Origin: Escherichia phage vB_EcoM_JE01
Strand: one strand, 5' to 3'
Sequence record: PQ471460.1
Length of the DNA: 64,000 nucleotides
Part shown: in pieces, positions 5,439-58,186 of the stretch
How the letters are laid out: each line of letters opens with the position of its first letter
How positions within the stretch are numbered: position 1 is the stretch's first letter
Notes under the pieces: generated by a model
What the model was told of the DNA's origin: nothing
What the model saw: the letters and a program-made list of their open reading frames with translations, nothing else
Databases searched by the model: none
Made by a program: the position numbers and the translations under genes

Positions 5439-6407
5439 ATGAAAACTGTAACTATCAATAAGGGTATCTACTTCGGTAAAGAAATCTCTGGAACTTTTGA
5501 GCTCTTAGGCGAATGGTTCCCAGATAATGCTCCGGTAGATGCACAGGGAGATGGTAAAGTTTTTGTTGAAATTGACGGTAAACGTCGCGGTGTTTGGGTT
5601 TACAAATCAGATATTTCATATGATGGTGTAAAAGTTGAAGAAGTTAAAGAATCATATGAAGATATGAAAACCCGCATTAATAAAAGATTTAATGTTATGG
5701 GAATGATGACGAATGGTATTATTAATGGAAATATTCGTTCATTGATTATCTCTGGCGCAGCAGGTATTGGTAAAACGTATTCTTTAGATAAAGCTTTAAA
5801 TAAAGCAAATGATAATGGATACATTGAATATAAAAGCATTAACGGTAAAATCTCTGGTATTGGTCTTTATGAGCAGCTTTGGAATAATCGTGAAGAGAAT
5901 TCTGTCCTTTTGATTGATGATGTGGATGTTTTCTCTGATATGGACATTCTTAATCTTCTAAAAGCTGCTCTGGACACTGGAGAGACCCGTAAAGTCTGCT
6001 GGAGTACTGCGTCTTCTTACTTAGAAGAAAAAGGCATTGAGCGTGAGTTTGAATTTAAAGGAACGATTGTTTTTATCACAAACGTTGATATTGACCGCGA
6101 ATTAGACCGTGGTACTAAACTTGCTCCACACCTACAAGCATTAGTGTCCCGCTCAGTTTATTTAGATTTGGGTGTTCATACTAATGAAGAAATTATGGTC
6201 AGGGTTGAAGATGTTATTCTTTCAACTGACATGATGCAAAAGCGCGGTCTTTCTGATGAAGAAACTTATAAAGCATTATCATGGATGAAAGTTAATGTTA
6301 ATCGTTTACGCAATGTTTCACTGCGTACTGCTCTTTATCTTGCTGACTTTATTATGACCGACAAAAACGGTTGGGAAGAAATTGCTGAAACGGTATTATT
6401 AAAATGA
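5439..6407 (+). CDS. predicted P-loop NTPase (AAA-like ATPase)
   Basis: 322 aa; Walker A GAAGIGKT and Walker B LLIDDVD; SD GGAG before ATG. Confidence 0.65.
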   Translation: MKTVTINKGIYFGKEISGTFELLGEWFPDNAPVDAQGDGKVFVEIDGKRRGVWVYKSDISYDGVKVEEVKESYEDMKTRINKRFNVMGMMTNGIINGNIRSLIISGAAGIGKTYSLDKALNKANDNGYIEYKSINGKISGIGLYEQLWNNREENSVLLIDDVDVFSDMDILNLLKAALDTGETRKVCWSTASSYLEEKGIEREFEFKGTIVFITNVDIDRELDRGTKLAPHLQALVSRSVYLDLGVHTNEEIMVRVEDVILSTDMMQKRGLSDEETYKALSWMKVNVNRLRNVSLRTALYLADFIMTDKNGWEEIAETVLLK

Positions 6408-7123
6408 AAAAATATTTTACTATCTATAAAACTGAAATATTAAATTTAAAGACAGGTATTAAGAAATACTATTATGGTCGACATATAACTAATAACATCA
6501 ATGATTCGTATGTTGGTAGTGGAAATTATATAGAACGTGTAAAAGTGTCAAATGACCACATATTATCAAAAACGGTTTTAGAAGTTTTTGATAATTATGA
6601 TAAAATGGTACAAGCTGAAATATTATATATCATGGCAGGTAAATTGAAATATGGAAAAAACTGTGTTAACCTGTCATACGGGGGTGAAGGAGGAAAGGTT
6701 GCAGATGAAACTAGGATAAAATGCAAAAAGCATTCTATAAATTTATGGAAAAATCCTAATCATATACAGCATATGAAGAAAAAGATGAAAGAGGTTACAT
6801 CCACGCCGGAAGCTAAATTAAACACTTCAATAAAAACTTCGCAACGATATAAGGACCCAGTTTTTGTTAGAAAAGTTAGTAATATTATTAAAAAGAAACT
6901 AAGCAATCCTGCAGTAAAAGAAAAGCATATTAATGGAATTAAAGCTGCAAAGCGTTCTCATTTAACTATATGGCAGTATGAAGATGAATTATTCGAGCTT
7001 TGGAAAGAAACTAAATATGGATGGAGAAAATTTACAAAGGAAGCTATAAAACACGGATATCCAAATGAACCGTATCGTAGTATGGTATCAACTTTTCAGA
7101 AAAGACATTTAGAAGAATCCTAA
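6404..7123 (+). CDS. putative Seg-like (degenerate GIY-YIG) homing endonuclease
   Basis: 239 aa, lysine-rich and AT-rich; N-terminus FTIYKTEILNLKTGIKKYYYGRH resembles GIY-(10-11)-YIG; C-terminal basic repeats typical of DNA-binding modules. Confidence 0.5.
   Translation: MKKYFTIYKTEILNLKTGIKKYYYGRHITNNINDSYVGSGNYIERVKVSNDHILSKTVLEVFDNYDKMVQAEILYIMAGKLKYGKNCVNLSYGGEGGKVADETRIKCKKHSINLWKNPNHIQHMKKKMKEVTSTPEAKLNTSIKTSQRYKDPVFVRKVSNIIKKKLSNPAVKEKHINGIKAAKRSHLTIWQYEDELFELWKETKYGWRKFTKEAIKHGYPNEPYRSMVSTFQKRHLEES
6404..7123 (+). mobile_element. putative free-standing homing endonuclease gene
   Basis: Same ORF as above; compositionally distinct from neighbours. Confidence 0.4.
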
Positions 7124-21804: not shown

Positions 21805-23007
21805 ATGAAAGTATGTATTTTTATGGCTCGAGGTCTTGAAGGTTGCGGTGTAACTAAATTTTCTCTTGAGCAGCGTGATTGGTTTATTAAAAATGGTCAT
21901 GAAGTAACTTTGGTTTATGCTAAAGATAAATCATTTACTCGTAATTGCGCGCATGATTATAAATCATTTTCAATTCCGGTTTTATTGGCAAAAGAATACG
22001 ATAAAACGCTTAAGCTGGTAAATGATTGTGATATTCTAGTTATCAATTCAGTTCCTGCTACTTCAGTCGAAGAAGACACAATTAATAACTATAAAAAAAT
22101 TATTGATAACATTAAACCTTCGGTTCGTGTTGTAGTTTATCAGCATGACCATTCTTCTCTTTCTTTGCGTCGAAATTTGGGATTAGAAGAAACTGTTCGT
22201 CGAGCTGATGTTATTTTTAGCCATTCTGATAATGGTGACTTTAATAAAGTTTTGATGAAAGAATGGTATCCGGAAACTGTTTCTCTGTTTGATGATATTG
22301 AAGAAGCACCGACCGTATATAACTTTCAGCCTCCTATGGATATTGCGAAGGTTCGATCAACCTACTGGAAAGATGTTTCTGAAATTAACATGAATATCAA
22401 TCGTTGGATTGGTCGTACTACTACATGGAAAGGTTTTTATCAGATGTTTGATTTTCACGAAAAACATCTTAAACCTGCAGGACTAAGTACTATTATGGAA
22501 GGTCTGGAACGTTCTCCAGCGTTCATTCCTATTAAAGAAAAAGGAATTCCATACGAGTATTATCGTCTTCATCAAGTAGACCAAATTAAAATTGCTCCTA
22601 ATTTGCCGACACAAATTCTCGACCGTTATGTAAATAGCGAAATGCTTGAACGCATGAGTAAATCCGGATTTGGTTATCAGCTGAGTAAATTAGATAAAAA
22701 ATATCTACAACGTTCTTTAGAATATACTCATCTCGAGCTTGGTGCATGTGGAACAATTCCGGTATTTTGGAAATCTACGGGCGAAAATTTAAAATTCCGT
22801 GTTGATAACACTCCATTAATTTCTCATGATAGCGGTATCGTTTGGTTTGATGAAAATGACATGGAATCAACATTTGAACGTATTAAAGAACTGTCATCTG
22901 ACCGAGCTCTTTATGACCGTGAACGTGAAAAATCTTATGAATTTTTGTATCAGCATCAAGATTCAAGCTTCTGCTTTAAAGAACAGTTTGACATTATTAC
23001 AAAATAA
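21805..23007 (+). CDS. a-gt: DNA alpha-glucosyltransferase
   Basis: 400 aa; MKVCIFMARGLEGCGVTKFSLEQRDWFIKNGHEV... matches recalled T4 alpha-gt. Confidence 0.9.
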   Translation: MKVCIFMARGLEGCGVTKFSLEQRDWFIKNGHEVTLVYAKDKSFTRNCAHDYKSFSIPVLLAKEYDKTLKLVNDCDILVINSVPATSVEEDTINNYKKIIDNIKPSVRVVVYQHDHSSLSLRRNLGLEETVRRADVIFSHSDNGDFNKVLMKEWYPETVSLFDDIEEAPTVYNFQPPMDIAKVRSTYWKDVSEINMNINRWIGRTTTWKGFYQMFDFHEKHLKPAGLSTIMEGLERSPAFIPIKEKGIPYEYYRLHQVDQIKIAPNLPTQILDRYVNSEMLERMSKSGFGYQLSKLDKKYLQRSLEYTHLELGACGTIPVFWKSTGENLKFRVDNTPLISHDSGIVWFDENDMESTFERIKELSSDRALYDREREKSYEFLYQHQDSSFCFKEQFDIITK

Positions 23008-24650: not shown

Positions 24651-26335
24651 AGAATTTTAAACTAAACCGAGTTAGGTATCAAAATATAATGTCAGTAGGT
24701 GGAAATCCTATTGACATTCAACTAGATAAGGTTCAAAAAACTCTTATTACTGGACGAAATGGCGGTGGTAAGTCTACTATGTTAGAAGCCATCACATTTG
24801 GGCTTTTTGGCAAGCCATTTCGTGATGTAAAGAAAGGTCAATTAATAAACAGCACAAATAAGAAAGAACTTTTAGTTGAACTGTGGATGGAATATGATGA
24901 GAAAAAGTACTATATCAAAAGAGGGCAAAAACCAAACGTTTTCGAAATCACCGTTAACGGTACACGTCTTAATGAATCTGCCAGCAGTAAAGATTTCCAA
25001 GCAGAATTTGAACAGCTTATCGGAATGTCATACGCCAGTTTCAAACAGATCGTCGTACTCGGCACGGCTGGATATACCCCTTTCATGGGCCTATCCACTC
25101 CTGCAAGAAGAAAACTCGTCGAAGACCTTCTCGAAGTAGGAACATTAGCTGAAATGGATAAGCTTAATAAAGCACTAATACGTGAATTAAATTCACAAAA
25201 CCAAGTGCTTGATGTTAAAAAAGATAGTATTATCCAACAAATTAAAATATATAATGATAACGTTGAACGCCAGAAAAAATTAACTGGTGATAACCTTACT
25301 CGTTTGCAGAATATGTATGATGATTTGGCAAAAGAAGCTAGAACGCTAAAATCGGAAATAGAAGAAGCTAATGAAAGATTAGTTAATATTGTTTTGGATG
25401 AAGACCCGACTGATGCATTTAATAAAATCGGTCAAGAAGCATTTTTAATTAAATCAAAAATTGACTCGTATAATAAAGTCATTAATATGTATCACGAAGG
25501 TGGATTATGTCCAACCTGTTTGTCACAATTAAGTTCCGGTGATAAAGTTGTTTCTAAAATTAAAGATAAAGTTTCTGAATGCACGCATTCGTTTGAACAG
25601 CTTTCAACACATCGTGATAATTTAAAAGTTCTTGTCGATGAATACCGAGATAATATTAAAACCCAACAGTCATTGGCAAATGATATTCGCAATAAAAAGC
25701 AATCTCTAATCACGACGGTAGATAAAGCTAAAAAAGTTAAAGCGGCTATAGAAAAAGCATCATCTGAGTTTATTGACCATGCTGATGAAATAGCACTGCT
25801 TCAAGAAGAACTTGATAAAATTGTTAAGACAAAAACTAATTTAGTAATGGAAAAATACCACAGAGGAATTTTGACTGACATGCTCAAAGATTCTGGTATT
25901 AAAGGTGCTATTATTAAAAAGTACATTCCATTATTTAATAAGCAGATTAACCATTATCTTAAAATAATGGAAGCGGATTATGTGTTTACATTAGATGAAG
26001 AATTTAATGAGACAATTAAATCCCGTGGTCGTGAAGATTTTAGTTATGCTTCATTTAGTCAAGGTGAAAAAGCACGAATTGATATTGCTCTTTTATTTAC
26101 TTGGCGTGATATTGCTGAAAAAGTTTCAGGTGTTAAAATAAGCTGTTTATTTCTTGATGAAGTATATGACGGTGCATTTGATGCTGAAGGTATTAAAAAT
26201 GTAGCTAAAATTTTAGATGGTTTGAAGGATACCAACTTCTTCATAATTTCGCATAAAGACCATGACCCACAAGAATATGGTCAGCATATTCAGATGGAAA
26301 AAGTTGGTAGATTTAGTTTAGCTAAGATTAGCTAG
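24647..26335 (+). CDS. 46: recombination endonuclease subunit gp46 (Rad50/SbcC-like ATPase)
   Basis: 562 aa; Walker A GRNGGGKST, central coiled coil with CPTC zinc hook, Walker B LFLDEV; GTG start. Confidence 0.95.
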   Translation: MKNFKLNRVRYQNIMSVGGNPIDIQLDKVQKTLITGRNGGGKSTMLEAITFGLFGKPFRDVKKGQLINSTNKKELLVELWMEYDEKKYYIKRGQKPNVFEITVNGTRLNESASSKDFQAEFEQLIGMSYASFKQIVVLGTAGYTPFMGLSTPARRKLVEDLLEVGTLAEMDKLNKALIRELNSQNQVLDVKKDSIIQQIKIYNDNVERQKKLTGDNLTRLQNMYDDLAKEARTLKSEIEEANERLVNIVLDEDPTDAFNKIGQEAFLIKSKIDSYNKVINMYHEGGLCPTCLSQLSSGDKVVSKIKDKVSECTHSFEQLSTHRDNLKVLVDEYRDNIKTQQSLANDIRNKKQSLITTVDKAKKVKAAIEKASSEFIDHADEIALLQEELDKIVKTKTNLVMEKYHRGILTDMLKDSGIKGAIIKKYIPLFNKQINHYLKIMEADYVFTLDEEFNETIKSRGREDFSYASFSQGEKARIDIALLFTWRDIAEKVSGVKISCLFLDEVYDGAFDAEGIKNVAKILDGLKDTNFFIISHKDHDPQEYGQHIQMEKVGRFSLAKIS

Positions 26336-27044
26336 GTTTATATTTACAGTTATCATTATGCCATCTTGATAAATTTCCGAAAGTGGTAACTTTACCACAA
26401 TGGACGCAAGTACCAGTCTTTTCAGTTTTCTTGCGTCCATTTGGATTTTTCTTGCAGAAATTTCTATGCGCTGCGATAACGCATTTCTTGCCTATCATTC
26501 CACAGAATTCGCAGGATGTTTCTTCAAGAACGATTGCTTTAAGCCCGTTTGAGATATTATTTCTGTGTTCTTTAGACATTGGTGGTCTAACTTTAGGATT
26601 AGGGTGATTTGGACAGTTATCAAAATGCCAACGATTCATATTCCCGCTTAATCCAGACTTACCGCAATGAGGACAAGTTAGTCTTGCTTTATTAGCTACT
26701 GCATCAGACATTTTCTTTCGTGTCTCCTGGGAGAATTCTTTGTTCTTTTCTATTTCCCAGAGTTTACGACGAATCCAACCGAAAGTTTTATTGTTGCGTT
26801 TAGCGTATTTCGTGGAAACTGTCATCATGTTAGCAGCATAGACTAATTTTGGTTCAGAAGGATAAATTTTTACTAAAAGTTGATGAGCTACATAGTGCTC
26901 TTCTGGCGTTAAATCTACTAAGTTTGAAGCATCATCACTACCGTTTAAACAGCGTGGTATAATGTGATGAGATTCAGTATAGCAATCAAGTTTTCGAGAT
27001 TTAGCATTAGAGATTAACTTTTCATAAATTAGTTTATAATTCAT
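26328..27044 (-). CDS. HNH homing endonuclease (mob-type)
   Basis: 238 aa on minus strand; ...ESHHIIPRCLNGSDDASNLVDLTPEEHYVAHQ... HNH core plus three C-terminal repeats of C-x-H/F-CGK...RWH-x-DNC. Confidence 0.8.
   Translation of the reverse strand: MNYKLIYEKLISNAKSRKLDCYTESHHIIPRCLNGSDDASNLVDLTPEEHYVAHQLLVKIYPSEPKLVYAANMMTVSTKYAKRNNKTFGWIRRKLWEIEKNKEFSQETRKKMSDAVANKARLTCPHCGKSGLSGNMNRWHFDNCPNHPNPKVRPPMSKEHRNNISNGLKAIVLEETSCEFCGMIGKKCVIAAHRNFCKKNPNGRKKTEKTGTCVHCGKVTTFGNLSRWHNDNCKYKPS
26328..27044 (-). mobile_element. free-standing homing endonuclease gene between genes 46 and rpbA
   Basis: Lone minus-strand gene in a + strand operon; HNH family. Confidence 0.6.
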
Positions 27045-30452: not shown

Positions 30453-33149
30453 ATGAAAGAATTTTATATCTCTATCGAAACAGTCGGAAATAATATTGTT
30501 GAACGTTATATTGATGAAAATGGAAAGGAACGTACTCGTGAAGTAGAATATCTTCCGACTATGTTTAGGCATTGTAAGGAAGAGTCAAAATACAAAGACA
30601 TTTATGGTAAAAATTGTGCTCCTCAAAAATTTCCATCAATGAAAGATGCCCGAGACTGGATGAAACGAATGGAAGACATCGGTCTCGAAGCTCTCGGTAT
30701 GAACGATTTTAAACTCGCTTATATCAGTGATACATATGGTTCAGAAATTGTTTATGACCGAAAATTTGTTCGTGTAGCTAACTGTGACATTGAGGTTACT
30801 GGTGATAAATTTCCTGACCCAATGAAAGCAGAATATGAAATTGATGCTATCACTCATTATGATTCAATTGACGACCGTTTTTACGTCTTTGATTTGTTGA
30901 ATTCAATGTACGGTTCAGTATCAAAATGGGATGCAAAGTTAGCTGCTAAGCTTGACTGTGAAGGTGGTGATGAAGTTCCTCAGGAAATTCTTGACCGAGT
31001 AATTTATATGCCATTTGATAATGAGCGTGATATGCTCATGGAATATATTAATCTCTGGGAACAGAAACGACCTGCTATTTTTACTGGTTGGAATATTGAG
31101 GGATTTGACGTTCCGTATATCATGAATCGTGTTAAAATGGTTCTCGGCGAACGCAGTATGAAACGCTTCTCTCCAATCGGTCGAGTAAAATCTAAACTAA
31201 TTCAAAATATGTACGGTAGCAAAGAAATTTATTCTATTGATGGCGTATCTATTCTTGATTATTTAGATTTGTACAAAAAATTCGCATTTACTAATTTGCC
31301 ATCATTCTCTTTGGAATCAGTTGCTCAACATGAAACCAAAAAAGGTAAATTACCATATGATGGTCCTATTAATAAACTTCGTGAGACTAATCATCAACGA
31401 TACATTAGTTATAACATTATTGACGTAGAATCAGTTCAAGCAATTGATAAAATTCGCGGGTTTATTGATCTAGTTTTAAGTATGTCTTATTACGCTAAAA
31501 TGCCTTTTTCTGGTGTAATGAGTCCTATTAAAACTTGGGATGCTATTATTTTTAACTCATTGAAAGGTGAACATAAGGTTATTCCTCAACAAGGTTCGCA
31601 CGTTAAACAAAGTTTTCCAGGTGCATTTGTATTTGAACCTAAAGCGATTGCTCGTCGATACATTATGAGTTTTGACTTGACGTCTCTGTATCCGAGTATT
31701 ATTCGTCAGGTTAACATTAGTCCTGAAACTATTCGTGGTCAGTTTAAAGTTCATCCAATTCATGAATATATCGCAGGAACCGCTCCTAAGCCAAGTGATG
31801 AGTACTCTTGTTCCCCGAATGGATGGATGTACGATAAGCATCAAGAAGGTATCATTCCAAAGGAAATCGCTAAAGTATTTTTCCAGCGTAAAGATTGGAA
31901 AAAGAAAATGTTCGCTGAAGAAATGAATGCCGAAGCTATTAAAAAGATTATTATGAAAGGCGCAGGGTCTTGCTCAACTAAACCAGAAGTTGAACGATAT
32001 GTTAAGTTTAATGATGATTTCTTAAACGAATTATCGAATTACACTGAATCTGTTCTTAATAGTCTGATCGAAGAATGTGAAAAAGCAGCTACACTTGCTA
32101 ACACAAATCAGCTGAACCGTAAAATTCTTATTAACAGTCTTTATGGTGCTCTTGGTAACATTCATTTCCGCTATTATGATTTGCGAAATGCTACTGCTAT
32201 CACAATTTTTGGTCAAGTTGGTATTCAGTGGATTGCTCGTAAAATTAATGAATACCTGAATAAGGTGTGTGGAACTGATGGTGAAGATTTCATCGCAGCA
32301 GGTGATACTGATTCGGTATATGTCTGCGTAGATAAAGTTATTGAAAAAGTAGGTCTTGACCGCTTTAAAGAACAAAATGATTTAGTTGAATTCATGAATC
32401 AGTTCGGTAAGAAAAAGATGGAACCTATGATTGATGCTGCATATCGTGAGTTATGTGATTATATGAATAACCGCGAGCATCTGATGCATATGGACCGTGA
32501 AGCTATTTCTTGCCCTCCACTTGGTTCAAAGGGTGTCGGTGGATTTTGGAAAGCGAAAAAACGTTATGCTCTGAACGTTTATGATATGGAAGATAAGCGA
32601 TTTGCTGAACCGCATCTAAAAATCATGGGTATGGAAACTCAGCAGAGTTCAACACCAAAAGCAGTACAAGAAGCTCTCGAAGAAAGTATTCGTCGTATTC
32701 TTCAGGAAGGCGAAGAGTCTGTCCAAGAATACTACAAGAACTTTGAGAAAGAATATCGTCAACTTGATTATAAAGTTATTGCTGAAGTAAAAACCGCGAA
32801 CGATATAGCGAAATATGATGATAAAGGTTGGCCAGGGTTTAAATGCCCGTTCCATATTCGTGGTGTACTAACTTATCGTCGAGCTGTTAGTGGTTTAGGT
32901 GTAGCTCCAATTTTGGATGGAAATAAGGTAATGGTTCTTCCATTACGTGAGGGAAATCCATTTGGTGACAAGTGTATTGCTTGGCCGTCGGGCACAGAAC
33001 TTCCAAAAGAAATTCGTTCTGATGTACTGTCTTGGATTGACTACTCAACTTTGTTCCAAAAATCGTTTGTTAAACCGCTTGCGGGCATGTGTGAATCGGC
33101 AGGTATGGACTATGAGGAAAAAGCTTCGTTAGACTTCCTGTTTGGCTGA
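30453..33149 (+). CDS. 43: DNA polymerase gp43 (family B, proofreading)
   Basis: 898 aa; exonuclease and polymerase motifs (DIE, YGDTDS, KINSLYG-like). Confidence 0.97.
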   Translation: MKEFYISIETVGNNIVERYIDENGKERTREVEYLPTMFRHCKEESKYKDIYGKNCAPQKFPSMKDARDWMKRMEDIGLEALGMNDFKLAYISDTYGSEIVYDRKFVRVANCDIEVTGDKFPDPMKAEYEIDAITHYDSIDDRFYVFDLLNSMYGSVSKWDAKLAAKLDCEGGDEVPQEILDRVIYMPFDNERDMLMEYINLWEQKRPAIFTGWNIEGFDVPYIMNRVKMVLGERSMKRFSPIGRVKSKLIQNMYGSKEIYSIDGVSILDYLDLYKKFAFTNLPSFSLESVAQHETKKGKLPYDGPINKLRETNHQRYISYNIIDVESVQAIDKIRGFIDLVLSMSYYAKMPFSGVMSPIKTWDAIIFNSLKGEHKVIPQQGSHVKQSFPGAFVFEPKAIARRYIMSFDLTSLYPSIIRQVNISPETIRGQFKVHPIHEYIAGTAPKPSDEYSCSPNGWMYDKHQEGIIPKEIAKVFFQRKDWKKKMFAEEMNAEAIKKIIMKGAGSCSTKPEVERYVKFNDDFLNELSNYTESVLNSLIEECEKAATLANTNQLNRKILINSLYGALGNIHFRYYDLRNATAITIFGQVGIQWIARKINEYLNKVCGTDGEDFIAAGDTDSVYVCVDKVIEKVGLDRFKEQNDLVEFMNQFGKKKMEPMIDAAYRELCDYMNNREHLMHMDREAISCPPLGSKGVGGFWKAKKRYALNVYDMEDKRFAEPHLKIMGMETQQSSTPKAVQEALEESIRRILQEGEESVQEYYKNFEKEYRQLDYKVIAEVKTANDIAKYDDKGWPGFKCPFHIRGVLTYRRAVSGLGVAPILDGNKVMVLPLREGNPFGDKCIAWPSGTELPKEIRSDVLSWIDYSTLFQKSFVKPLAGMCESAGMDYEEKASLDFLFG

Positions 33150-33162
33150 TAGAATAAATCTA

Positions 33163-33184
33163 GGGACCTCCGGGTCCCTTTTTC
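33163..33184 (+). terminator. rho-independent terminator
   Basis: gggacc-tccg-ggtccc TTTTTC. Confidence 0.7.
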
Positions 33185-33267
33185 ATACAAGTAATATAAA
33201 TCTATACTTAGGAAAAATAGATGATTCTGGACCTCTGGAATTCATTAAAAAATTTTTCACAAAACTG

Positions 33268-33297
33268 TTTACATCCCAGTTCCTTTGTGGTACTATA
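33268..33297 (+). promoter_or_regulatory. T4-type early promoter
   Basis: GTTTAC, 18 nt, TGGTACTAT; conserved leader CAACTATCAACT. Confidence 0.6.
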
Positions 33298-33330
33298 CAA
33301 CTATCAACTGATGCGGATTTGGAGAATGAA

Positions 33331-33711
33331 ATGAAAATCGCTATTTTGGTTATTGCATTGGGTCTTACTGGTTGTGTAGCTCAAGGACCAGTAGTAAATC
33401 AGTCTGATGTAGGAAAAATTGTAAACTGTTCAAGCAAATTTTATAATCCTAACGTCAAGTGTTATAAAGAGGCTCCAAAACAGACAGTAGAACAAATGCA
33501 GGCGAATTTTGACGAAGCTATTCGTCCAGATGAATCTGCACAAGCATATCGTAATTCAGATGTGATTACGCGTGAAGAAAAAATTGAAAACTACTGTGCT
33601 GAACTTTGGGCAAATTGGGCTAATAATTACCAATGGCGTACTGGTAAAAATGCTCCGATGGAGTATGTAGTAAATTCTTATAATTCATGTGTAAAAAATT
33701 TGACTAAGTGA
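33331..33711 (+). CDS. predicted lipoprotein (imm.1 position)
   Basis: 126 aa; signal peptide with lipobox LTGC. Confidence 0.6.
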   Translation: MKIAILVIALGLTGCVAQGPVVNQSDVGKIVNCSSKFYNPNVKCYKEAPKQTVEQMQANFDEAIRPDESAQAYRNSDVITREEKIENYCAELWANWANNYQWRTGKNAPMEYVVNSYNSCVKNLTK

Positions 33712-33718
33712 GGAAAAC

Positions 33719-33970
33719 ATGGAAACTTTAGTAGCAGGTTCAATTTTTATGGTTTTAGTTTCAGGCGTGTTGGCTATTATTATATACATGCTTCCGTGGT
33801 TCATCGCCTTGATGCGTGGGTCAAAATCGACAGTAGGAATCTTTTTCACGTCTTTACTGTTTAACTGGTCAATTATTGGTTGGTTTATTACCTTTATTTG
33901 GTCAATTGCGGGTGAAACTAAAAAATCTGTACAGCAAAATCAAGTAATTATCATCAGAGAGAAGGAATGA
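33719..33970 (+). CDS. imm: superinfection immunity protein Imm (membrane)
   Basis: 83 aa; METLVAGSIFMVLVSGVLAIIIYMLPWFIALMRGSKSTVGIFFTSLLFNWSIIGWFITFIWSIAGE... matches recalled T4 Imm. Confidence 0.85.
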   Translation: METLVAGSIFMVLVSGVLAIIIYMLPWFIALMRGSKSTVGIFFTSLLFNWSIIGWFITFIWSIAGETKKSVQQNQVIIIREKE

Positions 33971-34116
33971 AAAGCAAAATTTTAGCAGTATTGCTTTTAA
34001 TCTTGATGATTATAATAAGTATATACTATAGCGTAACAGTTCCTTGTATGATTCCAACGCTTATTATAGGGTGGAGTTTATTACTGTTACAAGTTAAATA
34101 TGAATGCATCAATTGA
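33967..34116 (+). CDS. small hydrophobic peptide (49 aa)
   Basis: ATGA overlap with imm; below ORF-track cutoff. Confidence 0.35.
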   Translation: MKSKILAVLLLILMIIISIYYSVTVPCMIPTLIIGWSLLLLQVKYECIN

Positions 34117-34123
34117 GGTTTAA

Positions 34124-34864
34124 ATGATTAACGATTATATGACAGTTGAAGAAATCCGTCTTGATTTGGGTCTTGCATTAAAGGAAAAAGATTTCGTAAT
34201 TGATAAAACCGGTGTTAAAACTATTGAAATTATTGGTGCATCATTTGTAGCAGATGAACCTTTTATTTTTGGCGCTCTTAATGATGAATACATTCAGCGT
34301 GAACTTGAATGGTATAAGTCTCAAAGTTTGTTTGTTAAAGATATTCCAGGTGAAACACCAAAGATTTGGCAGCAGGTAGCATCTTCTAAAGGCGAAATTA
34401 ACTCGAATTATGGTTGGGCCATCTGGTCAGAAGATAACTATGCCCAGTATGATATGTGTTTAGCTGAACTTGGTCAAAATCCTGATTCTCGACGCGGTAT
34501 CATGATTTATACTCGTCCATCCATGCAGTTTGACTACAATAAAGATGGTATGTCAGATTTCATGTGTACGAATACAGTACAGTATCTGATTCGTGATAAG
34601 AAAGTCAATGCAGTAGTAAGCATGCGTTCAAATGACGTGGTCTTCGGATTCCGTAATGATTATGCATGGCAAAAATACGTACTAGATAAATTAGTATCTG
34701 ATTTGAATGCAGGTGATTCAACTCGTCAGTATAAAGCAGGTTCTATTATATGGAATGTCGGAAGTCTTCATGTGTATTCCCGTCATTTTTATTTGGTTGA
34801 CCATTGGTGGAAAACTGGCGAAACTCATATTGCGAAAAAAGATTATAACGGTGAGTGGAAATGA
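34124..34864 (+). CDS. 42: dCMP hydroxymethylase gp42
   Basis: 246 aa; thymidylate-synthase-like fold; MINDYMTVEEIRLDLGLALKEKDFVIDKTGVKTIEIIGASF... Confidence 0.95.
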   Translation: MINDYMTVEEIRLDLGLALKEKDFVIDKTGVKTIEIIGASFVADEPFIFGALNDEYIQRELEWYKSQSLFVKDIPGETPKIWQQVASSKGEINSNYGWAIWSEDNYAQYDMCLAELGQNPDSRRGIMIYTRPSMQFDYNKDGMSDFMCTNTVQYLIRDKKVNAVVSMRSNDVVFGFRNDYAWQKYVLDKLVSDLNAGDSTRQYKAGSIIWNVGSLHVYSRHFYLVDHWWKTGETHIAKKDYNGEWK

Positions 34865-35703
34865 TTCAATTCGTAATTCCAAGTTATCAACGCGTAGGGG
34901 CAGTTTCTGCCCTTAATATGTTTCCATCTGATTATGAACCTCATATTGTAGTACGTAAACACGAAGAAAAAGCTTATTATGATGCTTATGGGTCTAGAGC
35001 TAAAATTATAACTATTCCTGATGATGTTAATGGAATTGCTGGTACTCGTAAAGCAATTACTGATATGTATGCAGGCCAACGAATCTGGATGATTGATGAT
35101 GATACTACTATTCGTATGAGTTCAATGCGAAAGAAAGATGATCGTCGTTGCGTAGATAAAATTAATCAATTAACTCGTGAACAGTTCTATGAATTGATTC
35201 AATACGTTGAAGATGCCATGGATTGTGGGTATTATCACGGTCATGCTCGTCTACCTATTTTTAAAATTACTTCATCTTGGGGTAATTATCGTGAAAATTC
35301 ATATGGATTCACGAATACCTGGTATGACCTTGGAAAACTTACAACAGAACAAATTGGGTATGGAAAAATTGATTTATGCGAAGATATGTATGCATTTCTC
35401 AATTTAATTAATCAAGGTTATCCGCATTTGGCCTTGTTCAAATATCTGGTTGTATCTGGAAAAGCACAAGCTCCTGGCGGATGTAGTTCAATTCGTAGTA
35501 ATTCAAAACATAATAGAGCGCTTGAGCAAATCAATAGAGAGTTTCCAGAGCAAGCTCGTTGGAAAACTTCTAATATTGAAAAACGAAAATCATTAGGTGA
35601 AGAAGACGAGCCATTAAAGGTTCTTCGCATGTGTGTTTCGCGCAAAGAAAAATCAGAAGCATTTCATAAGTTTAATGCTATTCATCCAATAGCAGTTGAT
35701 TAA
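34861..35703 (+). CDS. putative DNA glycosyltransferase with DxD motif (occupies the beta-gt position; not T4 beta-gt)
   Basis: 280 aa; IWMIDDDTTIR DxD motif; between 42 and uvsX; unlike the recalled 351-aa T4 beta-gt. Confidence 0.65.
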   Translation: MIQFVIPSYQRVGAVSALNMFPSDYEPHIVVRKHEEKAYYDAYGSRAKIITIPDDVNGIAGTRKAITDMYAGQRIWMIDDDTTIRMSSMRKKDDRRCVDKINQLTREQFYELIQYVEDAMDCGYYHGHARLPIFKITSSWGNYRENSYGFTNTWYDLGKLTTEQIGYGKIDLCEDMYAFLNLINQGYPHLALFKYLVVSGKAQAPGGCSSIRSNSKHNRALEQINREFPEQARWKTSNIEKRKSLGEEDEPLKVLRMCVSRKEKSEAFHKFNAIHPIAVD

Positions 35704-35780
35704 TGCCTAAATTTATTGTGTTATAATTACCCTATCTTTAACCAGTGAGGAAAATATAATGATGCCTATGGAAAAAATGA

Positions 35781-36962
35781 ATGTCTATTGCAGATTTAAA
35801 ATCCCGTTTGATTAAAGCTTCCACTTCTAAAATGACTGCTGAACTGACTACATCTAAATTCTTTAATGAAAAGGATGTAATTCGTACAAAAATCCCAATG
35901 CTTAATATTGCTATTTCCGGTGCGATTGATGGCGGTATGCAGTCTGGTTTAACCATTTTTGCAGGTCCTTCTAAACACTTTAAATCAAATATGTCTTTGA
36001 CTATGGTTGCGGCGTATTTGAACAAATATCCTGACGCGGTTTGTCTATTTTATGATAGCGAATTTGGTATTACTCCAGCTTATTTGCGATCCATGGGAGT
36101 TGACCCGGAACGAGTAATTCATACACCAATTCAGTCAGTTGAACAGCTGAAAATTGATATGGTGAATCAGCTTGAAGCTATTGAGCGCGGTGAAAAAGTT
36201 ATTGTATTCATCGACTCAATCGGTAATATGGCTTCTAAGAAAGAAACGGAAGATGCCTTGAATGAAAAATCTGTGGCAGATATGACTCGTGCTAAATCAC
36301 TGAAGTCATTATTCCGTATTGTTACTCCTTATTTTAGCATTAAAAATATTCCATGTGTTGCGGTTAACCATACAATTGAAACAATTGAAATGTTTAGTAA
36401 AACCGTGATGACAGGTGGTACAGGCGTAATGTATTCGGCTGATACTGTATTCATTATCGGTAAGCGCCAGATTAAAGATGGTTCCGATCTTCAGGGATAT
36501 CAATTTGTTCTAAATGTAGAAAAATCTCGTACCGTCAAAGAAAAAAGTAAATTCTTTATTGATGTTAAATTTGACGGCGGCATCGATCCTTATTCTGGAT
36601 TGTTAGATATGGCTCTTGAATTAGGGTTTGTAGTAAAACCTAAAAATGGTTGGTATGCTCGTGAATTTCTTGACGAAGAAACTGGCGAGATGATTCGCGA
36701 AGAAAAATCTTGGCGTGCAAAAGATACCAATTGCACTACATTCTGGGGTCCTTTATTTAAGCATCAACCATTCCGAGATGCTATTAAACGTGCTTATCAG
36801 TTAGGTGCTATTGATAGTAATGAAATTGTTGAAGCTGAAGTCGACGAATTGATTAACTCAAAGGTTGAAAAATTTAAATCTCCAGAAAGTAAAAGTAAAT
36901 CAGCAGCTGATTTAGAAACTGACCTAGAACAGTTAAGTGATATGGAAGAATTTAATGAATAA
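35781..36962 (+). CDS. uvsX: RecA-like recombinase UvsX
   Basis: 393 aa; Walker A GPSKHFKS; ...MLNIAISGAIDGGMQSGLTIFAGPSKHFKSN... matches recalled T4 UvsX. Confidence 0.95.
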   Translation: MSIADLKSRLIKASTSKMTAELTTSKFFNEKDVIRTKIPMLNIAISGAIDGGMQSGLTIFAGPSKHFKSNMSLTMVAAYLNKYPDAVCLFYDSEFGITPAYLRSMGVDPERVIHTPIQSVEQLKIDMVNQLEAIERGEKVIVFIDSIGNMASKKETEDALNEKSVADMTRAKSLKSLFRIVTPYFSIKNIPCVAVNHTIETIEMFSKTVMTGGTGVMYSADTVFIIGKRQIKDGSDLQGYQFVLNVEKSRTVKEKSKFFIDVKFDGGIDPYSGLLDMALELGFVVKPKNGWYAREFLDEETGEMIREEKSWRAKDTNCTTFWGPLFKHQPFRDAIKRAYQLGAIDSNEIVEAEVDELINSKVEKFKSPESKSKSAADLETDLEQLSDMEEFNE

Positions 36963-37299
36963 AGATGATTTAGATTTAGATCTAGAAATTATCGACGAAT
37001 CCCCCTCTTCGGAGGGGGAAGAAGAAAGAAAAGAACGCCTTTTTAATGAATCTCTTAAGATAATTAAATCTGCCATGGAAAATGTTATCCAGGAGATTGT
37101 CATTAAACTAGAAGACGGTTCTACACACATTGTGTATGTGACAAAATTAGATTGGGTTGATGGAAAAGTCGTAATGGACTTTGCTGTTCTTGACCAAGAA
37201 AGAAAAGCTGAGTTAGCTCCTCATGTAGAAAAATGTATTACAATGCAACTACAAGATGCATTTAATAAAAGGTCAAAGAAAAAATTTAAATTCTTTTAA
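36955..37299 (+). CDS. 40: gp40-like protein (head vertex assembly chaperone position)
   Basis: 114-aa ORF between uvsX and 41; contains a UUCG hairpin in its 5' coding region. Confidence 0.55.
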   Translation: MNKDDLDLDLEIIDESPSSEGEEERKERLFNESLKIIKSAMENVIQEIVIKLEDGSTHIVYVTKLDWVDGKVVMDFAVLDQERKAELAPHVEKCITMQLQDAFNKRSKKKFKFF

Positions 37300-41980: not shown

Positions 41981-42631
41981 GTGAATTACCAAAAAATTTA
42001 CTCGGCTTTAATTACAAAAGCTAAATGCCGGCATCTTGGTGGATATAAAGAACGCCATCATATAATTCCTAGATGTATGGGAGGAGCAGATGACAAAAAC
42101 AATCTTGTTGAGTTAACTGCGCGTGAGCATTTTATAGCTCATAGATTATTAACCAAAATATATCCAGATGTGAGAGGATTGCATTATGCTGTAAATTTAA
42201 TGCGATATAATAAAGGTGTTAAATTAACAAGTAGATTAATAGAAACCCTTAAAATTCAAAACTCTGTTCTTTTCTCGGGTGAAAATAATCCTAGATATGG
42301 CAAGCCGTCATGGATTAAAGGCAAAAAGACCCCAGAAGAAACTAAAGCCAAAATGCGTCTAGCTCATAAAGGTAAAATTATATCCGATGAAGCCAAGGCT
42401 AATATGAGTAAAGCCCGAAAAGGAAGATTTAGCGGTAAAAATTCACCTCGATATTGTTTACCGAATCCAAGACGTGGTGAGATATGGAATTCGTATGATT
42501 CGCTTTACGAGTTGTGGGTTTATAATAATAGACCTAAGCGCACAAAATTTAATAAAATAGCTGTCAAGGCAGGTTATCCTAATATCTGCTATAGACATAT
42601 GATAGAAAACTTCATAAGAAAGGAAAAATAA
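41981..42631 (+). CDS. HNH homing endonuclease (mob-type)
   Basis: 216 aa; N-terminus ...ERHHIIPRCMGGADDKNNLVELTAREHFIAHRLL... paralogous to 26328-27044; GTG start. Confidence 0.75.
   Translation: MNYQKIYSALITKAKCRHLGGYKERHHIIPRCMGGADDKNNLVELTAREHFIAHRLLTKIYPDVRGLHYAVNLMRYNKGVKLTSRLIETLKIQNSVLFSGENNPRYGKPSWIKGKKTPEETKAKMRLAHKGKIISDEAKANMSKARKGRFSGKNSPRYCLPNPRRGEIWNSYDSLYELWVYNNRPKRTKFNKIAVKAGYPNICYRHMIENFIRKEK
41981..42631 (+). mobile_element. free-standing homing endonuclease gene between genes 61 and 56
   Basis: HNH family; inserted in an intergenic position. Confidence 0.55.
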
Positions 42632-42632
42632 C

Positions 42633-43151
42633 ATGCCACATTTCAACGAATGTAGTCATCTGATCGAAGGCGCTGATAAAGCTCAAAATGAATACTGGGA
42701 TATTCTCGGTGACGAAAAAGACCCGCTGCAAGTTATGCTTGATATGCAGAAATCTCTGCAAGTTCGTTTAGCTAAAGATAAACCTGAATATAATCGTCAT
42801 CCTGATGATTTGGCTACTGCTGGTGAAGTTGTTGATTGGCTGCGTAATCAGAAAGATTATATTGACGATGAATTCCGTGAACTTCTGACATCTCTTGGTG
42901 GTATGAGCAATGGCGAAAAAGATGCATCTGCTGTATGGAAGCCTTGGAAAGCTCAACATGGTGAACGCCGTGAAACTCTAATTACCGATTTGTCTCCGCA
43001 AGACCAGTTGGAAATTAAATTCGAAATGATTGATATTCTTCATTTCGTTCTGAACATGTTCCAAGGTCTTGGTCTTACAGCTGAAGAAATCTTTAAACTT
43101 TATTATCTGAAAAATGCTGAAAACTTCGCTCGTCAAGACCGAGGTTATTAA
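42633..43151 (+). CDS. 56: dCTPase/dUTPase gp56
   Basis: 172 aa (MazG-like NTP pyrophosphatase fold) at the gene 56 position. Confidence 0.85.
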   Translation: MPHFNECSHLIEGADKAQNEYWDILGDEKDPLQVMLDMQKSLQVRLAKDKPEYNRHPDDLATAGEVVDWLRNQKDYIDDEFRELLTSLGGMSNGEKDASAVWKPWKAQHGERRETLITDLSPQDQLEIKFEMIDILHFVLNMFQGLGLTAEEIFKLYYLKNAENFARQDRGY

Positions 43152-43771: not shown

Positions 43772-44112
43772 TGTTTATCTTTAATTGGTTTAAAAATTTC
43801 TTTACGGATTTTTTCTTTACAGCTCCTGGAGAAGGTGTAGTTCCTATTTCAAATGACTACCTTCCTTTAACTGTAGTTGAATATGTTTATATGGGAGATG
43901 GAACAGTAGAAGCAGTTACTATGACTTATGAAGAAGCCCAGGAATATTATAAAAATCCTTGGCGCTGGTCAACACCTACTACATCATCTAATACACAGAA
44001 TACACAGTCTAATTCTGATTCATATGATACTAATGTTCCTGTTCATGTATGGACGGGCGATTCATGTGGAAGTTCTTGTGATTCTAGTTGTTCATCTACA
44101 TCTTGCGATTGA
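43771..44112 (+). CDS. hypothetical protein with Ser/Thr/Cys-rich tail
   Basis: 113-aa ORF. Confidence 0.5.
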
Positions 44113-44120
44113 GGAAAATT

Positions 44121-44606
44121 ATGGAAGCGATTTTGTTTGAAATGTATATTAGCAGTAATAGCATGTCGTTTGCTAAAGATGTTCCAATTACAGTAGCAGT
44201 AATGATTGATAAAAGATATGATAATAGCATGTATCTAGTAGAAGATTTTATTTCAATGCCAGTTCCAGAAGATGTTGAAATAAAACTTAAAAAGATCGGA
44301 ATTATTGAAACTGTACGAAATTCTCCATTTATGTCAATTCAAGCATTTACTAAATCTAACTATATTGATGTTGCTGAAGCATATTATAACAATAAACCGT
44401 TGCCATTATATTCATATGATTCAATATATGACTGGAAAGTAGATAAGGGAAATAAATTTATAATTACGGAAGAAAATGCGCTATCATATTTTATTACCTC
44501 TTTATGGAATAATTTAAATCCAAATTTGCTAAAAATTCATAAATTCGATGATGCTCCTACTGTTGTTTTAGGTAAAATAAATGAAAGTTCTGAAGAAAAT
44601 GTTTGA
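44121..44606 (+). CDS. hypothetical protein
   Basis: 161-aa ORF; SD GAGGAAAA. Confidence 0.5.
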
Positions 44607-44784: not shown

Positions 44785-44945
44785 ACAGAGATATGACGCT
44801 AGAAGAGGCCAAGGCTAAAGCAAATGAAGCATTGGATTTGCTTCTTAAAATTGGCAGTAAAATGATGGAAGAGAATGAAAAATATATCCAGGAAAACAAA
44901 ATTCCTGACGGCCCATTAGTAGGCAAAAGGAAATCACATGATTGA
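44781..44945 (+). CDS. hypothetical small protein (54 aa)
   Basis: ATGA overlaps at both ends. Confidence 0.3.
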
Positions 44946-45408
44946 AGTAGCAAAACATTATTCAATAGAATTTATGTCTAAAGAAGGTAAATCAGTAAAT
45001 ACGCTTGATAAAAAGTGCTCATTAATTATTCCTTTAGCAGAAAATCCGGATCTTTTAATTAAAGATATAAAAGAAAGAAAATACCCAGAAAATGTTATCC
45101 TAATTATAAAGCATACTGAAGATATTTTGCAGAATACTGATTCACCATTTTCTTCTTCTGAAGCTTTAACTATTAAAGGATATAAAAGAGCTCATGAATA
45201 TGGTCTTTTTGACCTGTTTGAAGATGATAACGTTAAATTAGCGAGTCAACCTTCTAAAAGTAAAACATTCATTATTGAAGATATTAAAGACATAAATGCA
45301 TTTGTTAAGATGGTCTGGGCTCATTTTGATGTTGGACTACGCTGGAGAATGTCCGAAGAAGAAAGAAAGATCATTGAAGCTAATCGTTATTTTGGTTTTT
45401 ATCGCTAG
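44938..45408 (+). CDS. hypothetical protein
   Basis: 156-aa ORF. Confidence 0.55.
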
Positions 45409-53895: not shown

Positions 53896-53922
53896 ATTCC
53901 CGAAACCAAACGAGGATAAGTG

Positions 53923-55740
53923 ATGATTAAGAATGAAATTAAAATTCTGAGCGATATTGAACATATCAAAAAGCGTAGCGGCATGTATATTGGCTCTTCT
54001 GCTAATGAAATGCATGAGCGCTTTCTGTTTGGTAAATGGGAAAGTGTTCAGTATGTACCTGGTCTTGTTAAGCTTATTGATGAAATTATTGATAACTCAG
54101 TAGATGAAGGTATTCGTACTAAGTTTAAATTCGCAAATAAAATTAATGTTACTATCAAAAACAATCAAGTAACAGTTGAAGATAACGGTCGTGGTATTCC
54201 ACAGGCGATGGTTAAAACACCTACCGGTGAAGAAATTCCTGGTCCTGTTGCTGCATGGACTATTCCAAAAGCAGGTGGTAACTTTGGTGATGATAAAGAA
54301 CGCGTCACTGGCGGTATGAACGGTGTTGGTTCTAGTTTAACTAACATTTTTTCTGTGATGTTTGTCGGTGAAACTGGCGACGGTCAAAATAATATTGTAG
54401 TTCGCTGCTCGAATGGCATGGAAAATAAATCGTGGGAAGATATTCCTGGAAAATGGAAAGGAACACGTGTTACTTTCATACCTGATTTTATGTCATTTGA
54501 AACTAATGAGCTATCTCAAGTTTATCTTGACATTACACTAGATCGTCTCCAGACACTTGCAGTAGTTTATCCTGATATTCAATTTACCTTTAATGGTAAA
54601 AAGGTTCAGGGTAATTTTAAGAAATATGCACGCCAATATGATGAACATGCTATCGTTCAAGAACAAGAAAATTGTTCTATTGCGGTTGGTCGTTCACCGG
54701 ATGGTTTTCGTCAATTAACATACGTCAATAACATTCATACTAAGAATGGTGGCCATCACATTGACTGCGTTATGGATGATATTTGTGAAGACCTTATTCC
54801 ACAAATCAAACGTAAGTTCAAAATTGATGTAACTAAAGCACGTGTTAAAGAATGTTTGACTATCGTTATGTTTGTTCGTGATATGAAAAACATGCGATTT
54901 GATTCTCAAACTAAAGAGCGTTTGACTTCTCCATTTGGTGAAATTCGTAGTCATATTCAGCTTGATGCTAAAAAGATTTCACGTGCTATTTTAAATAATG
55001 AAGCAATTTTAATGCCAATCATTGAAGCTGCCTTGGCTCGTAAATTGGCGGCAGAAAAAGCAGCAGAAACTAAAGCAGCTAAAAAGGCTTCTAAAGCTAA
55101 GGTTCATAAACATATTAAAGCGAATCTTTGTGGTAAAGATGCTGATACTACTCTTTTCTTGACTGAGGGTGATTCTGCTATTGGATATCTTATTGATGTT
55201 CGTGATAAAGAACTTCATGGTGGTTATCCATTGCGTGGTAAAGTTCTTAACAGTTGGGGCATGTCATATGCTGATATGCTTAAAAACAAAGAACTATTTG
55301 ATATTTGCGCAATCACTAGATTAGTTCTTGGTGAAAAAGCCGAAAACTTGAATTATCATAATATTGCAATTATGACCGATGCTGACCATGATGGTCTAGG
55401 AAGCATTTATCCTTCTCTGCTCGGATTTTTTAGTAATTGGCCAGAATTGTTTGAACAAGGAAGAATTCGCTTTGTCAAAACTCCTGTAATCATCGCTCAG
55501 GTCGGCAAAAAACAAGAATGGTTTTATACAGTCGCTGAATATGAGAGTGCCAAAGATGCTCTACCTAAACATAGCATCCGTTATATTAAAGGACTTGGCT
55601 CTTTGGAAAAATCTGAATATCGTGAGATGATTCAAAATCCAGTATATGATGTTGTTAAACTTCCTGAGAATTGGAAAGAGCTTTTTGAAATGCTCATGGG
55701 AGATAATGCTGACCTTCGTAAAGAATGGATGAGCCAGTAG
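53923..55740 (+). CDS. 39: DNA topoisomerase II large subunit (GyrB-like ATPase), uninterrupted
   Basis: 605-aa continuous ORF (GHKL ATPase + TOPRIM); MIKNEIKILSDIEHIKKRSGMYIGS...; no separate gene 60 and no bypass element. Confidence 0.95.
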   Translation: MIKNEIKILSDIEHIKKRSGMYIGSSANEMHERFLFGKWESVQYVPGLVKLIDEIIDNSVDEGIRTKFKFANKINVTIKNNQVTVEDNGRGIPQAMVKTPTGEEIPGPVAAWTIPKAGGNFGDDKERVTGGMNGVGSSLTNIFSVMFVGETGDGQNNIVVRCSNGMENKSWEDIPGKWKGTRVTFIPDFMSFETNELSQVYLDITLDRLQTLAVVYPDIQFTFNGKKVQGNFKKYARQYDEHAIVQEQENCSIAVGRSPDGFRQLTYVNNIHTKNGGHHIDCVMDDICEDLIPQIKRKFKIDVTKARVKECLTIVMFVRDMKNMRFDSQTKERLTSPFGEIRSHIQLDAKKISRAILNNEAILMPIIEAALARKLAAEKAAETKAAKKASKAKVHKHIKANLCGKDADTTLFLTEGDSAIGYLIDVRDKELHGGYPLRGKVLNSWGMSYADMLKNKELFDICAITRLVLGEKAENLNYHNIAIMTDADHDGLGSIYPSLLGFFSNWPELFEQGRIRFVKTPVIIAQVGKKQEWFYTVAEYESAKDALPKHSIRYIKGLGSLEKSEYREMIQNPVYDVVKLPENWKELFEMLMGDNADLRKEWMSQ

Positions 55741-56008: not shown

Positions 56009-58186
56009 ATGATTATCACCACTGAAAAAGAAACAATTCTTGGTAATGGTTCTAAATCAAAAGCATTTAGCATCACAGCATCTCCTAAAGTATTTAAAAT
56101 TCTATCATCTGATTTGTACACAAACAAGATTCGCGCAGTAGTCCGTGAATTGATTACCAACATGATTGATGCCCATGCTCTTAATGGAAATCCTGAAAAA
56201 TTTATCATACAAGTTCCAGGACGATTAGATCCGCGATTTGTTTGTCGAGATTTTGGTCCGGGTATGAGCGATTTTGATATTCAGGGTGATGATAATTCTC
56301 CTGGGTTGTATAATTCATACTTCAGTTCATCTAAGGCTGAATCCAACGATTTCATTGGCGGATTTGGTTTAGGTTCTAAATCTCCGTTTAGTTATACTGA
56401 TACATTTAGTATTACTTCGTACCATAAAGGTGAAATTCGCGGTTATGTAGCTTACATGGATGGTGACGGTCCGCAAATTAAACCTACATTCGTAAAAGAA
56501 ATGGGTCCAAATGATAAAACTGGTATTGAAATCGTAGTTCCAGTTGAAGAAAAAGATTTTAGAAACTTTGCTTATGAAGTTTCTTATATCATGCGACCAT
56601 TCAAAGATTTAGCTATCATTAACGGTCTTGACCGCGAAATTGATTATTTTCCGGATTTTGATGACTATTACGGTGTAAATCCAGAAAGATACTGGCCAGA
56701 TCGTGGTGGATTGTATGCTATCTATGGCGGCATTGTTTATCCTATCGAAGGTGTTATTAGAGATCGTAACTGGTTAAGCATCCGCAATGAAGTGAATTAT
56801 ATTAAGTTTCCAATGGGTTCACTTGATATTGCTCCATCGCGTGAGGCTCTTTCACTAGATGATCGTACTCGTAAAAATATTATTGAGCGTGTTAAAGAGC
56901 TCAGTGAGAAGGCATTTAATGAAGATGTAAAACGATTTAAAGAATCTACATCTCCTCGTCATACATACCGTGAATTGATGAAGATGGGATATTCTGCTCG
57001 AGATTATATGATTAGCAATTCGGTCAAATTCACGACTAAAAATCTGTCATATAAAAAGATGCAAAGCATGTTTGAACCTGACAGTAAGTTATGTAATGCA
57101 GGAGTTGTGTATGAAGTAAATCTTGACCCTCGACTGAAACGCATTAAGCAAAGCCATGAAACTTCAGCCGTTGCATCAAGTTATCGTCTGTTTGGTATTA
57201 ACACAACAAAAATTAATATCGTTATTGATAATATTAAAAACCGCGTTAATATTGTCCGTGGATTAGCACGTGCATTAGATGATAGCGAATTTAATAACAC
57301 CTTAAATATTCATCACAATGAGCGTCTTCTGTTTATTAATCCGGAAGTAGAATCACAGATTGATTTACTCCCTGATATTATGGCAATGTTTGAAAGTGAT
57401 GAAGTTAACATTCATTATTTGTCAGAAATTGAAGCTTTAGTTAAAAGTTATATTCCAAAGGCAGTAAAAAGTACAGCTCCTCGTCCTAAAACTGCCACTG
57501 CATTTAAGTTTGAAATTAAAGACGGGCGTTGGGAAAAAGAGGAATTGTTTACGCTCACATCAGAAGCAGATGAAATTACTGGTTATGTAGCATACATGCA
57601 TCGTTCTGATATTTTCTCTATGGATGGTACTACATCGCTTTGTCATCCATCTACGAATATTTTGATTCGTATGGCTAATCTTATTGGCATTAATGAATTT
57701 TATGTTATTCGTCCGCTTTTGCAGAAAAAGGTAAAAGAACTTGGTCAGTGCCAATGTATTTTTGAAACTTTGCGTGATTTATATGTAGATGCTTTTGATG
57801 ATGTAGATTATGATAAGTATGTAGGTTATTCAAGTTCAGCTAAACGATATATTGATAAAATTATCAAGTATCCTGAGTTAGATTTTATGATGAAGTACTT
57901 CAGTGTAGATGAAGTTTCTGAAGAATATACACGACTCGCTAATATGGTTAGTTCATTACAGGGTGTATATTTCAACGGTGGAAAAGATACCATCGGTCAT
58001 GACATCTGGACAGTAACTAATCTTTTTGATGTATTATCAAATAATGCTTCAAAAAACAGTGATAAAATGGTTGCTGAGTTTACCAAGAAATTCCGTATTG
58101 TTTCCGACTTCATCGGTTATCGCAATTCTTTAAGTGATGATGAAGTTTCCCAAATCGCTAAAACTATGAAGGCCCTTGCGGCCTAA
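56009..58186 (+). CDS. rIIA: rIIA protein
   Basis: 725 aa; [56 protein letters not shown]... matches recalled T4 rIIA. Confidence 0.95.

Follow-up and report, generated by a model that had tools for sequence, protein, structure and literature searches.

A T2/T6-type second-glucose transferase gene (ba-gt, TAGT) between gene 42 and uvsX in Escherichia phage vB_EcoM_JE01

Phages T2 and T6 are without the beta-glucosyltransferase gene (b-gt) and carry ba-gt, whose product adds a second glucose to alpha-glucosyl-5-hydroxymethylcytosine (alpha-glucosyl-hmC) to give gentiobiosyl-hmC (PMC13216743; bioRxiv 10.64898/2026.02.25.707755). The share of hmC that carries the second glucose is about 5% in T2 and about 72% in T6, with about 25% of hmC left bare in both phages (PMC13216743; bioRxiv 10.64898/2026.02.25.707755); the presence of the gene does not fix the extent of second glucosylation. 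When ba-gt is deleted from T6, alpha-glucosyl-hmC alone is left and sensitivity to the glycosylase Brig1 rises (PMC11078745). Gentiobiosyl-hmC DNA resists Brig1 in vitro and is still cut by GmrSD-type enzymes, while bare hmC is exposed to Brig3 (PMC13216743; PMC11078745; bioRxiv 10.64898/2026.02.25.707755). The deglucosylase BapA cannot strip gentiobiosyl-hmC (bioRxiv 10.64898/2026.02.25.707755).

[quoted passage not shown] Nearly all of the 753 phage genomes surveyed elsewhere carry an alpha-GT or a beta-GT together with TAGT, the pairing of alpha-GT with beta-GT being confined to six of them, T4 and its close relatives (PMC13216743). By this survey the arrangement found here is common and T4 is the outlier, that is, alpha-GT with TAGT is the majority state and not an unusual variant, and the alpha and beta pair of T4 is the exception.

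The window, a stretch of 64,000 nucleotides (64 kb), is as a whole that of a Tequatrovirus, with vB_EcoM_G4498 as the closest record (96.4% identical over 24 kb). A sequence-only reading of this DNA had singled out a 280-aa ORF with a DxD-type motif, IWMIDDDTTIR, between gene 42 and uvsX, where it placed the 351-aa b-gt of T4, and had noted alpha-gt upstream. The coordinates, the motif, and both flanks of the ORF were confirmed, alpha-gt is indeed present as a 400-aa AGT protein, and T4 does carry its 351-aa b-gt in the gene 42-uvsX interval, alongside segA. The genes on which the comparison turns are the following:
34124..34864, plus strand: gene 42, dCMP hydroxymethylase (Pfam Thymidylat_synt, E=1e-15; same product name in matching records)
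34861..35703, plus strand: ba-gt/TAGT coding sequence, beta-glucosyl-HMC-alpha-glucosyltransferase, 280 aa plus stop (ORF list, PHROG 842, PF20691, T2/T6 identity)
35781..36962, plus strand: uvsX, the downstream flank of ba-gt (Pfam T4_UVSX_C, E=5e-39; RecA, E=2e-11)
21805..23007, plus strand: a-gt, DNA alpha-glucosyltransferase, 400 aa (Pfam AGT, E=5e-236; PDB 1XV5, E=2e-256; 91% identical to T6 a-gt)
42633..43151, plus strand: gene 56, dCTPase/dUTPase (PHROG 173 nucleoside triphosphate pyrophosphohydrolase, E=6e-47; dCTP pyrophosphatase in matching records)

The start codon of ba-gt is the ATG at 34861, two codons inside the frame given in the program-made ORF list, which begins at GTG 34855. 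Read from the sequence, this ATG shares the tetranucleotide ATGA with the stop codon of gene 42, and this overlap makes it probable that ba-gt is translated from the message of gene 42. The DxD-type motif occupies residues 75-85 (nucleotides 35083..35115), and a spacer of 77 nt (35704..35780) separates the end of the gene from uvsX.

Family assignment was consistent across profiles and individual proteins. PHROG 842, 'beta-glucosyl-HMC-alpha-glucosyltransferase', matches the ORF with E=3e-88 over profile positions 4-269 of 270, and the Pfam TAGT profile PF20691 matches with 39.1 bits over positions 2-205 of 205, the gathering score of that profile being 27.5 bits; NCBIfam gave no model for the ORF. 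At the DNA level, 479 phage records match, 474 of them over at least 80% of the ORF, with identity of up to 98.5%. These records are mostly T4-like phages of Escherichia, Shigella, Yersinia, and Salmonella, and many are annotated with the identical product name. Judged by the PHROG 842 match and the 474 records, the ORF is a real gene and not a chance reading frame. Comparison with the T2 and T6 beta-alpha-glucosyltransferases, which the sequence-only reading had proposed as a check, gave 98% identity with the T2 protein (273 of 280 residues) and 97% with the annotated T6 ggt (254 of 261). A search for paralogs of ba-gt within the 64-kb window found none.

The same arrangement and function have been published for T2, T6, and T6-like isolates (PMC13216743; PMC13390438; PMC11078745), and the layout of gene 42, TAGT, and uvsX without b-gt is common to the window, T6, T2, BGP, CP, EL, and EH2. 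We are therefore highly confident that the ORF at 34861..35703 is a T2/T6-type beta-glucosyl-HMC-alpha-glucosyltransferase (variously ba-gt, g-gt, ggt, or TAGT) with a role in adding the second glucose. The proposal that the locus is a T2/T6-like arrangement adding a second sugar is thus supported by the identity to T2 and T6, the presence of alpha-gt, the absence of b-gt, and the published T2/T6-like cases. This genome itself establishes which gene it is, that it is intact and syntenic, and that alpha-gt accompanies it, and modeling adds its predicted fold; the second-glucose chemistry would follow by analogy with the published work on T2 and T6.

A diverged or relocated b-gt was considered as another source of an ORF at this position and was rejected, because searches with T4 b-gt came back empty at both levels: BLASTP against the ORF found no similarity, and tblastn against the whole 64-kb window found no homolog (best E=1.5). 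The full-length alignment with T4 b-gt that would have counted against the second-sugar proposal did not appear, the best BLASTP match having E=3.3 over 8 residues. In addition, the b-gt family profile PF09198 has no match in the ORF, and no b-gt remnant was found in the 77-nt interval between TAGT and uvsX. Two metagenomic T4-like contigs bear on the history of the locus, as they show the gene order 42, TAGT, b-gt homolog (PF09198), uvsX:
contigs L011 (10001-11904) and L010 (10001-11948): TAGT adjoining a b-gt homolog (PF09198) between 42 and uvsX, the TAGT being 64% and 51-52% identical to that of the window

The presence of TAGT and b-gt side by side in these distant T4-like phages indicates that the two are not alleles of one gene or one slot. 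They can coexist at the locus, of which T4 has b-gt only and the T2/T6 type TAGT only.

Among 5.8 billion proteins searched, ba-gt has a compact family of relatives that extends to 29% identity by BLASTP, and invariance was judged on an alignment of 11 family members reaching down to 30% identity. Residues I6, P7, S8, Y9, R11, D79, D80, D81, D175, G206, G207, S209, and R212 are invariant across these homologs, and the ba-gt of the window keeps all 32 invariant alignment columns. The AlphaFold2 model computed from the ba-gt alignment (mean pLDDT 80, pTM 0.81, with low confidence for residues 132-149) is a single GT-A domain, not the two-domain GT-B fold, and its DDD triplet follows immediately after the fourth strand (74-77). 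A fold prediction had been suggested as a further check, and it points to a GT-A, GT2-like protein with DDD at the canonical DxD position. A published analysis of T6 TAGT with AlphaFold3 came to the same fold, placing the protein as GT-A and a sister group of GT2 (PMC13216743). The T6 TAGT query named in that paper is YP_010067197.1. Three elements of the predicted active site could be placed on the sequence:
34876..34893, plus strand: N-terminal motif I6-P7-S8-Y9-Q10-R11 at the end of strand 1 (strand 3-7 in the model; I6, P7, S8, Y9, and R11 invariant), putative nucleotide-sugar contact
35095..35103, plus strand: D79-D80-D81, DxD-type motif within IWMIDDDTTIR, predicted metal and UDP-sugar binding
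35380..35385, plus strand: E174-D175 (in CEDMYAF), candidate catalytic-base 'ED' motif at the start of helix 174-184 (D175 invariant, E174 nearly so)

These roles are assigned from the predicted model and by analogy with GT2 enzymes. The I6-R11 motif may contact the nucleotide sugar as in GT-A/GT2 enzymes, and by its GT2 likeness E174-D175 is a reasonable candidate for the catalytic base. GT2 enzymes invert the anomeric configuration. Such inversion is what a beta-1,6 linkage made from UDP-alpha-glucose requires, so the predicted GT-A, GT2-like fold, with DDD after the fourth strand, fits an inverting UDP-glucose transferase that forms a beta linkage.

Together with its partner genes, ba-gt would complete a familiar pathway. 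Gene 42, the dCMP hydroxymethylase, would make the hmC precursor and gene 56, the dCTPase, would exclude unmodified dCTP, giving DNA with 5-hydroxymethylcytosine. The product of alpha-gt, the sole first-sugar transferase found in the window, would then add an alpha-linked glucose to about three quarters of the hmC, creating the acceptor for ba-gt. The GT-A, GT2-like, inverting ba-gt enzyme would bind UDP-glucose and a divalent metal through DDD and, as in T2 and T6, would transfer a second glucose, beta-1,6, onto the first to yield gentiobiosyl-hmC.

We aligned the window ba-gt with those of T2 and T6 and with those of BGP, EL, CP, and EH2, four isolates whose nucleoside composition is known. 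Proportions of hmC, alpha-glucosyl-hmC, and gentiobiosyl-hmC are intermediate, about 1:2:2, in BGP, EL, and Geo, while about two thirds is gentiobiosyl-hmC in CP and EH2 (PMC13390438). Relative to the state in T2, T6, CP, and EH2, the window protein shows D19N, T23S, E33K, R92K, and V101I, all conservative and all at variable positions. The alleles of BGP and EL share seven substitutions, and of these only V101I also occurs in the window protein, the other six (I50V, M89I, R95K, C97R, A202S, and Q203H) being absent from it. CP and EH2 represent the consensus sequence and are 98% identical to the window protein, which has the consensus residue at the BGP/EL and T2 variant sites, V101I excepted, and keeps R11 and P251. 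The T2 enzyme (AP018813, 7283-8125) has R11H, at a residue invariant in the 11 aligned family members, and also P251S. This R11H change is a candidate cause of the low gentiobiosylation of T2 (about 5%) compared with T6.

More broadly, allelic differences (R11H and P251S in T2; I50V, M89I, R95K, C97R, A202S, and Q203H in BGP and EL) may set the extent of second glucosylation, a suggestion that we offer tentatively and regard as somewhat doubtful. If it were true, the window allele, being in the CP/EH2/T6 state at these sites, would predict about two thirds gentiobiosyl-hmC, and the difference between T2 and T6 would gain a simple sequence basis. The similarity of alleles and the lack of dam (see below) weakly suggest a T6-like pattern for this phage, mostly gentiobiosyl-hmC plus bare hmC, a prediction drawn from a handful of phages in which expression or other factors could equally act.

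Public T6 records differ from the window at this gene. In MH550421 (locus L002 4951-4953, minus strand) codon 10 of ggt is the stop TAG in place of the Gln10 codon of the window, CAA, and as a result ggt is annotated there from Met20 with 261 aa. AP018814 (locus L004 3135-3974), like NC_054907, its copy in RefSeq, has only two Asp in place of the DDD triplet, which leaves IWMIDDTTIR in a protein of 279 aa. We considered whether the deletion of DDD to DD is widespread and rejected this, as among 473 phage records it is unique to AP018814 and the RefSeq copy.

Such lesions raise the question of whether the window holds a decaying or non-functional copy, as the two T6 cases indicate that lesions occur in laboratory stocks or assemblies. 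The ORF of the window, however, is of full length, has Gln at codon 10, keeps DDD and every invariant residue, and has its start coupled to gene 42, and the DDD deletion is restricted to one T6 sequence and its copy; decay is hardly credible here. It is scarcely more probable that this TAGT has an altered specificity, with another donor or with bare hmC or beta-glucosyl-hmC as acceptor, and produces a modification unlike that of T2 and T6. TAGT homologs do occur with beta-GT in other phages and alone in many genomes (PMC13216743), from which it follows that the family as a whole must accept different substrates. In the window, however, the protein is 97-98% identical to the characterized T2 and T6 enzymes, keeps the invariant residues and differs from them at variable positions, and alpha-gt is the only first-sugar transferase found, so we regard such a change as very unlikely.

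A T2-like weakness of the same enzyme deserves more weight. In that case the DNA would carry mainly single alpha-linked glucoses and only a few percent of gentiobiosyl-hmC, and in practice it would differ little from that of a T4 without b-gt. T2 itself has little gentiobiosyl-hmC despite a protein 98% identical to that of the window, and the intermediate composition of the natural isolates BGP, EL, and Geo indicates that the extent varies among near-identical genes. Against this, the window retains the invariant Arg that is His in T2, retains P251, and lacks six of the seven BGP/EL substitutions. It also resembles CP and EH2, the isolates rich in gentiobiosyl-hmC, both in protein sequence and in having no dam between genes 61 and 56, although all of these points are correlations over very few phages. 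On balance we consider a weak enzyme unlikely, and an active T2/T6-type ba-gt remains the preferred reading of the locus.

Two short sequence features lie in or next to the gene. A terminator-like hairpin with a 9-bp G+C-rich stem, TAGGGGCAG-TTT-CTGCCCTTA, lies at 34895..34915 on the plus strand, 35 nt into the coding sequence of ba-gt. It outdoes shuffled sequences in folding by a modest margin only (z-score -2.5). It is kept in the homolog of 64% identity, where the peptide GAVTAL is also kept, and is lost in the homolog of 52% identity, and no covariation or compensatory changes were found in these two homologs. With this z-score, conservation where the peptide is conserved, and no covariation, a functional hairpin is not claimed. 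In the spacer before uvsX (35704..35780, plus strand), TGCCTAA begins just after the ba-gt stop codon and is followed 11 nt on by TATAAT. We take this pair to resemble the MotA box (TGCTTtA) and the -10 element of MotA-dependent middle promoters in T4. A scan of 33000..37000 for sigma-70 promoters returned 16 sites, compared with 14.8 +/- 3.7 in shuffled controls, and was uninformative, as the sites were no more numerous than in the shuffled sequences.

Elsewhere, the region from primase gene 61 to gene 56 of the window differs from that of several relatives. T4, T2, and BGP carry dam there, with a second ORF as well in T2 and BGP, whereas the window has an HNH homing endonuclease gene (216 aa, 41981..42631, plus strand; PHROG 655, E=3e-59). 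A tblastn search of the window with T2 Dam found nothing. This stretch is covered over at least 80% by only 29 of the 756 matching phage records, and the 12 matches listed for it contain primase, HNH or homing endonuclease, and dCTPase, with no dam among them. The space between gene 46 and rpbA, where T6 and T2 have no gene, holds a second HNH homing endonuclease ORF of PHROG 655 (238 aa, 26328..27044, minus strand, E=9e-69), which runs convergently to gene 46 and overlaps the end of that gene by 8 nt. A 239-aa ORF at 6404..7123 (plus strand) has weak similarity to T4 SegA (tblastn E=1e-6, about 200 residues) and probably represents a further homing endonuclease gene of the GIY-YIG seg type.

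PHROG 1234, 'Mrh transcription modulator under heat shock', is represented by two neighboring paralogs on the plus strand, at 44088..44606 (E=8e-58) and 44938..45408 (E=9e-53). Upstream of rIIA (56009..58186) is a single ORF of 606 aa (53920..55740, plus strand), which we presume to be the unsplit gene 39 of non-T4 relatives, T4 having the split topoisomerase genes 39 and 60.

For annotators and for users of such phages in phage therapy, the expectation from this locus is alpha-glucosyl-hmC and gentiobiosyl-hmC with some bare hmC, and no beta-glucosyl-hmC. This matters since, according to the published work, the pattern of hmC decoration affects the outcome of defense by Brig1, BapA, GmrSD-type enzymes, and Brig3. 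The gene itself offers no novelty, and because its arrangement is that of the majority of the genus it opens no new question; in all respects examined, from the gene and its family to its fold, locus, partner, and role in the phage, it was already known.

Among known systems, T4 b-gt (PF09198) shares with ba-gt its place in the gene 42-uvsX interval, where T4 also has segA, the UDP-glucose donor, and a beta linkage made on modified phage DNA (PMC13216743). The two differ in fold, GT-B for T4 b-gt (PMC13216743) and GT-A in the model of ba-gt, and in acceptor, which is bare hmC for b-gt and alpha-glucosyl-hmC for ba-gt. No solved structure has detectable sequence similarity to ba-gt, and identity to the inverting GT-A enzymes of family GT2 (TarP, 6H1J; TarS, 5TZE; RmlT, 8BZ4; SpsA, 1H7L) is only 7-17%. 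Unlike these enzymes, ba-gt has as its acceptor a sugar on duplex DNA and not a lipid, teichoic acid, or polysaccharide, and it carries a charged C-terminal extension of about 70 residues (208-280) beyond the Pfam domain (3-207).

The closest likeness by far is to the ba-gt of T2 and T6, with which the window gene shares a length of 280 aa, 97-98% identity, the ATGA overlap with gene 42, the alpha-gt partner, the DDD motif, and the site between gene 42 and uvsX. It differs from T2 in having Arg11 in place of His11, and from the public T6 records MH550421 and AP018814, both of which carry lesions in this gene, in being intact.
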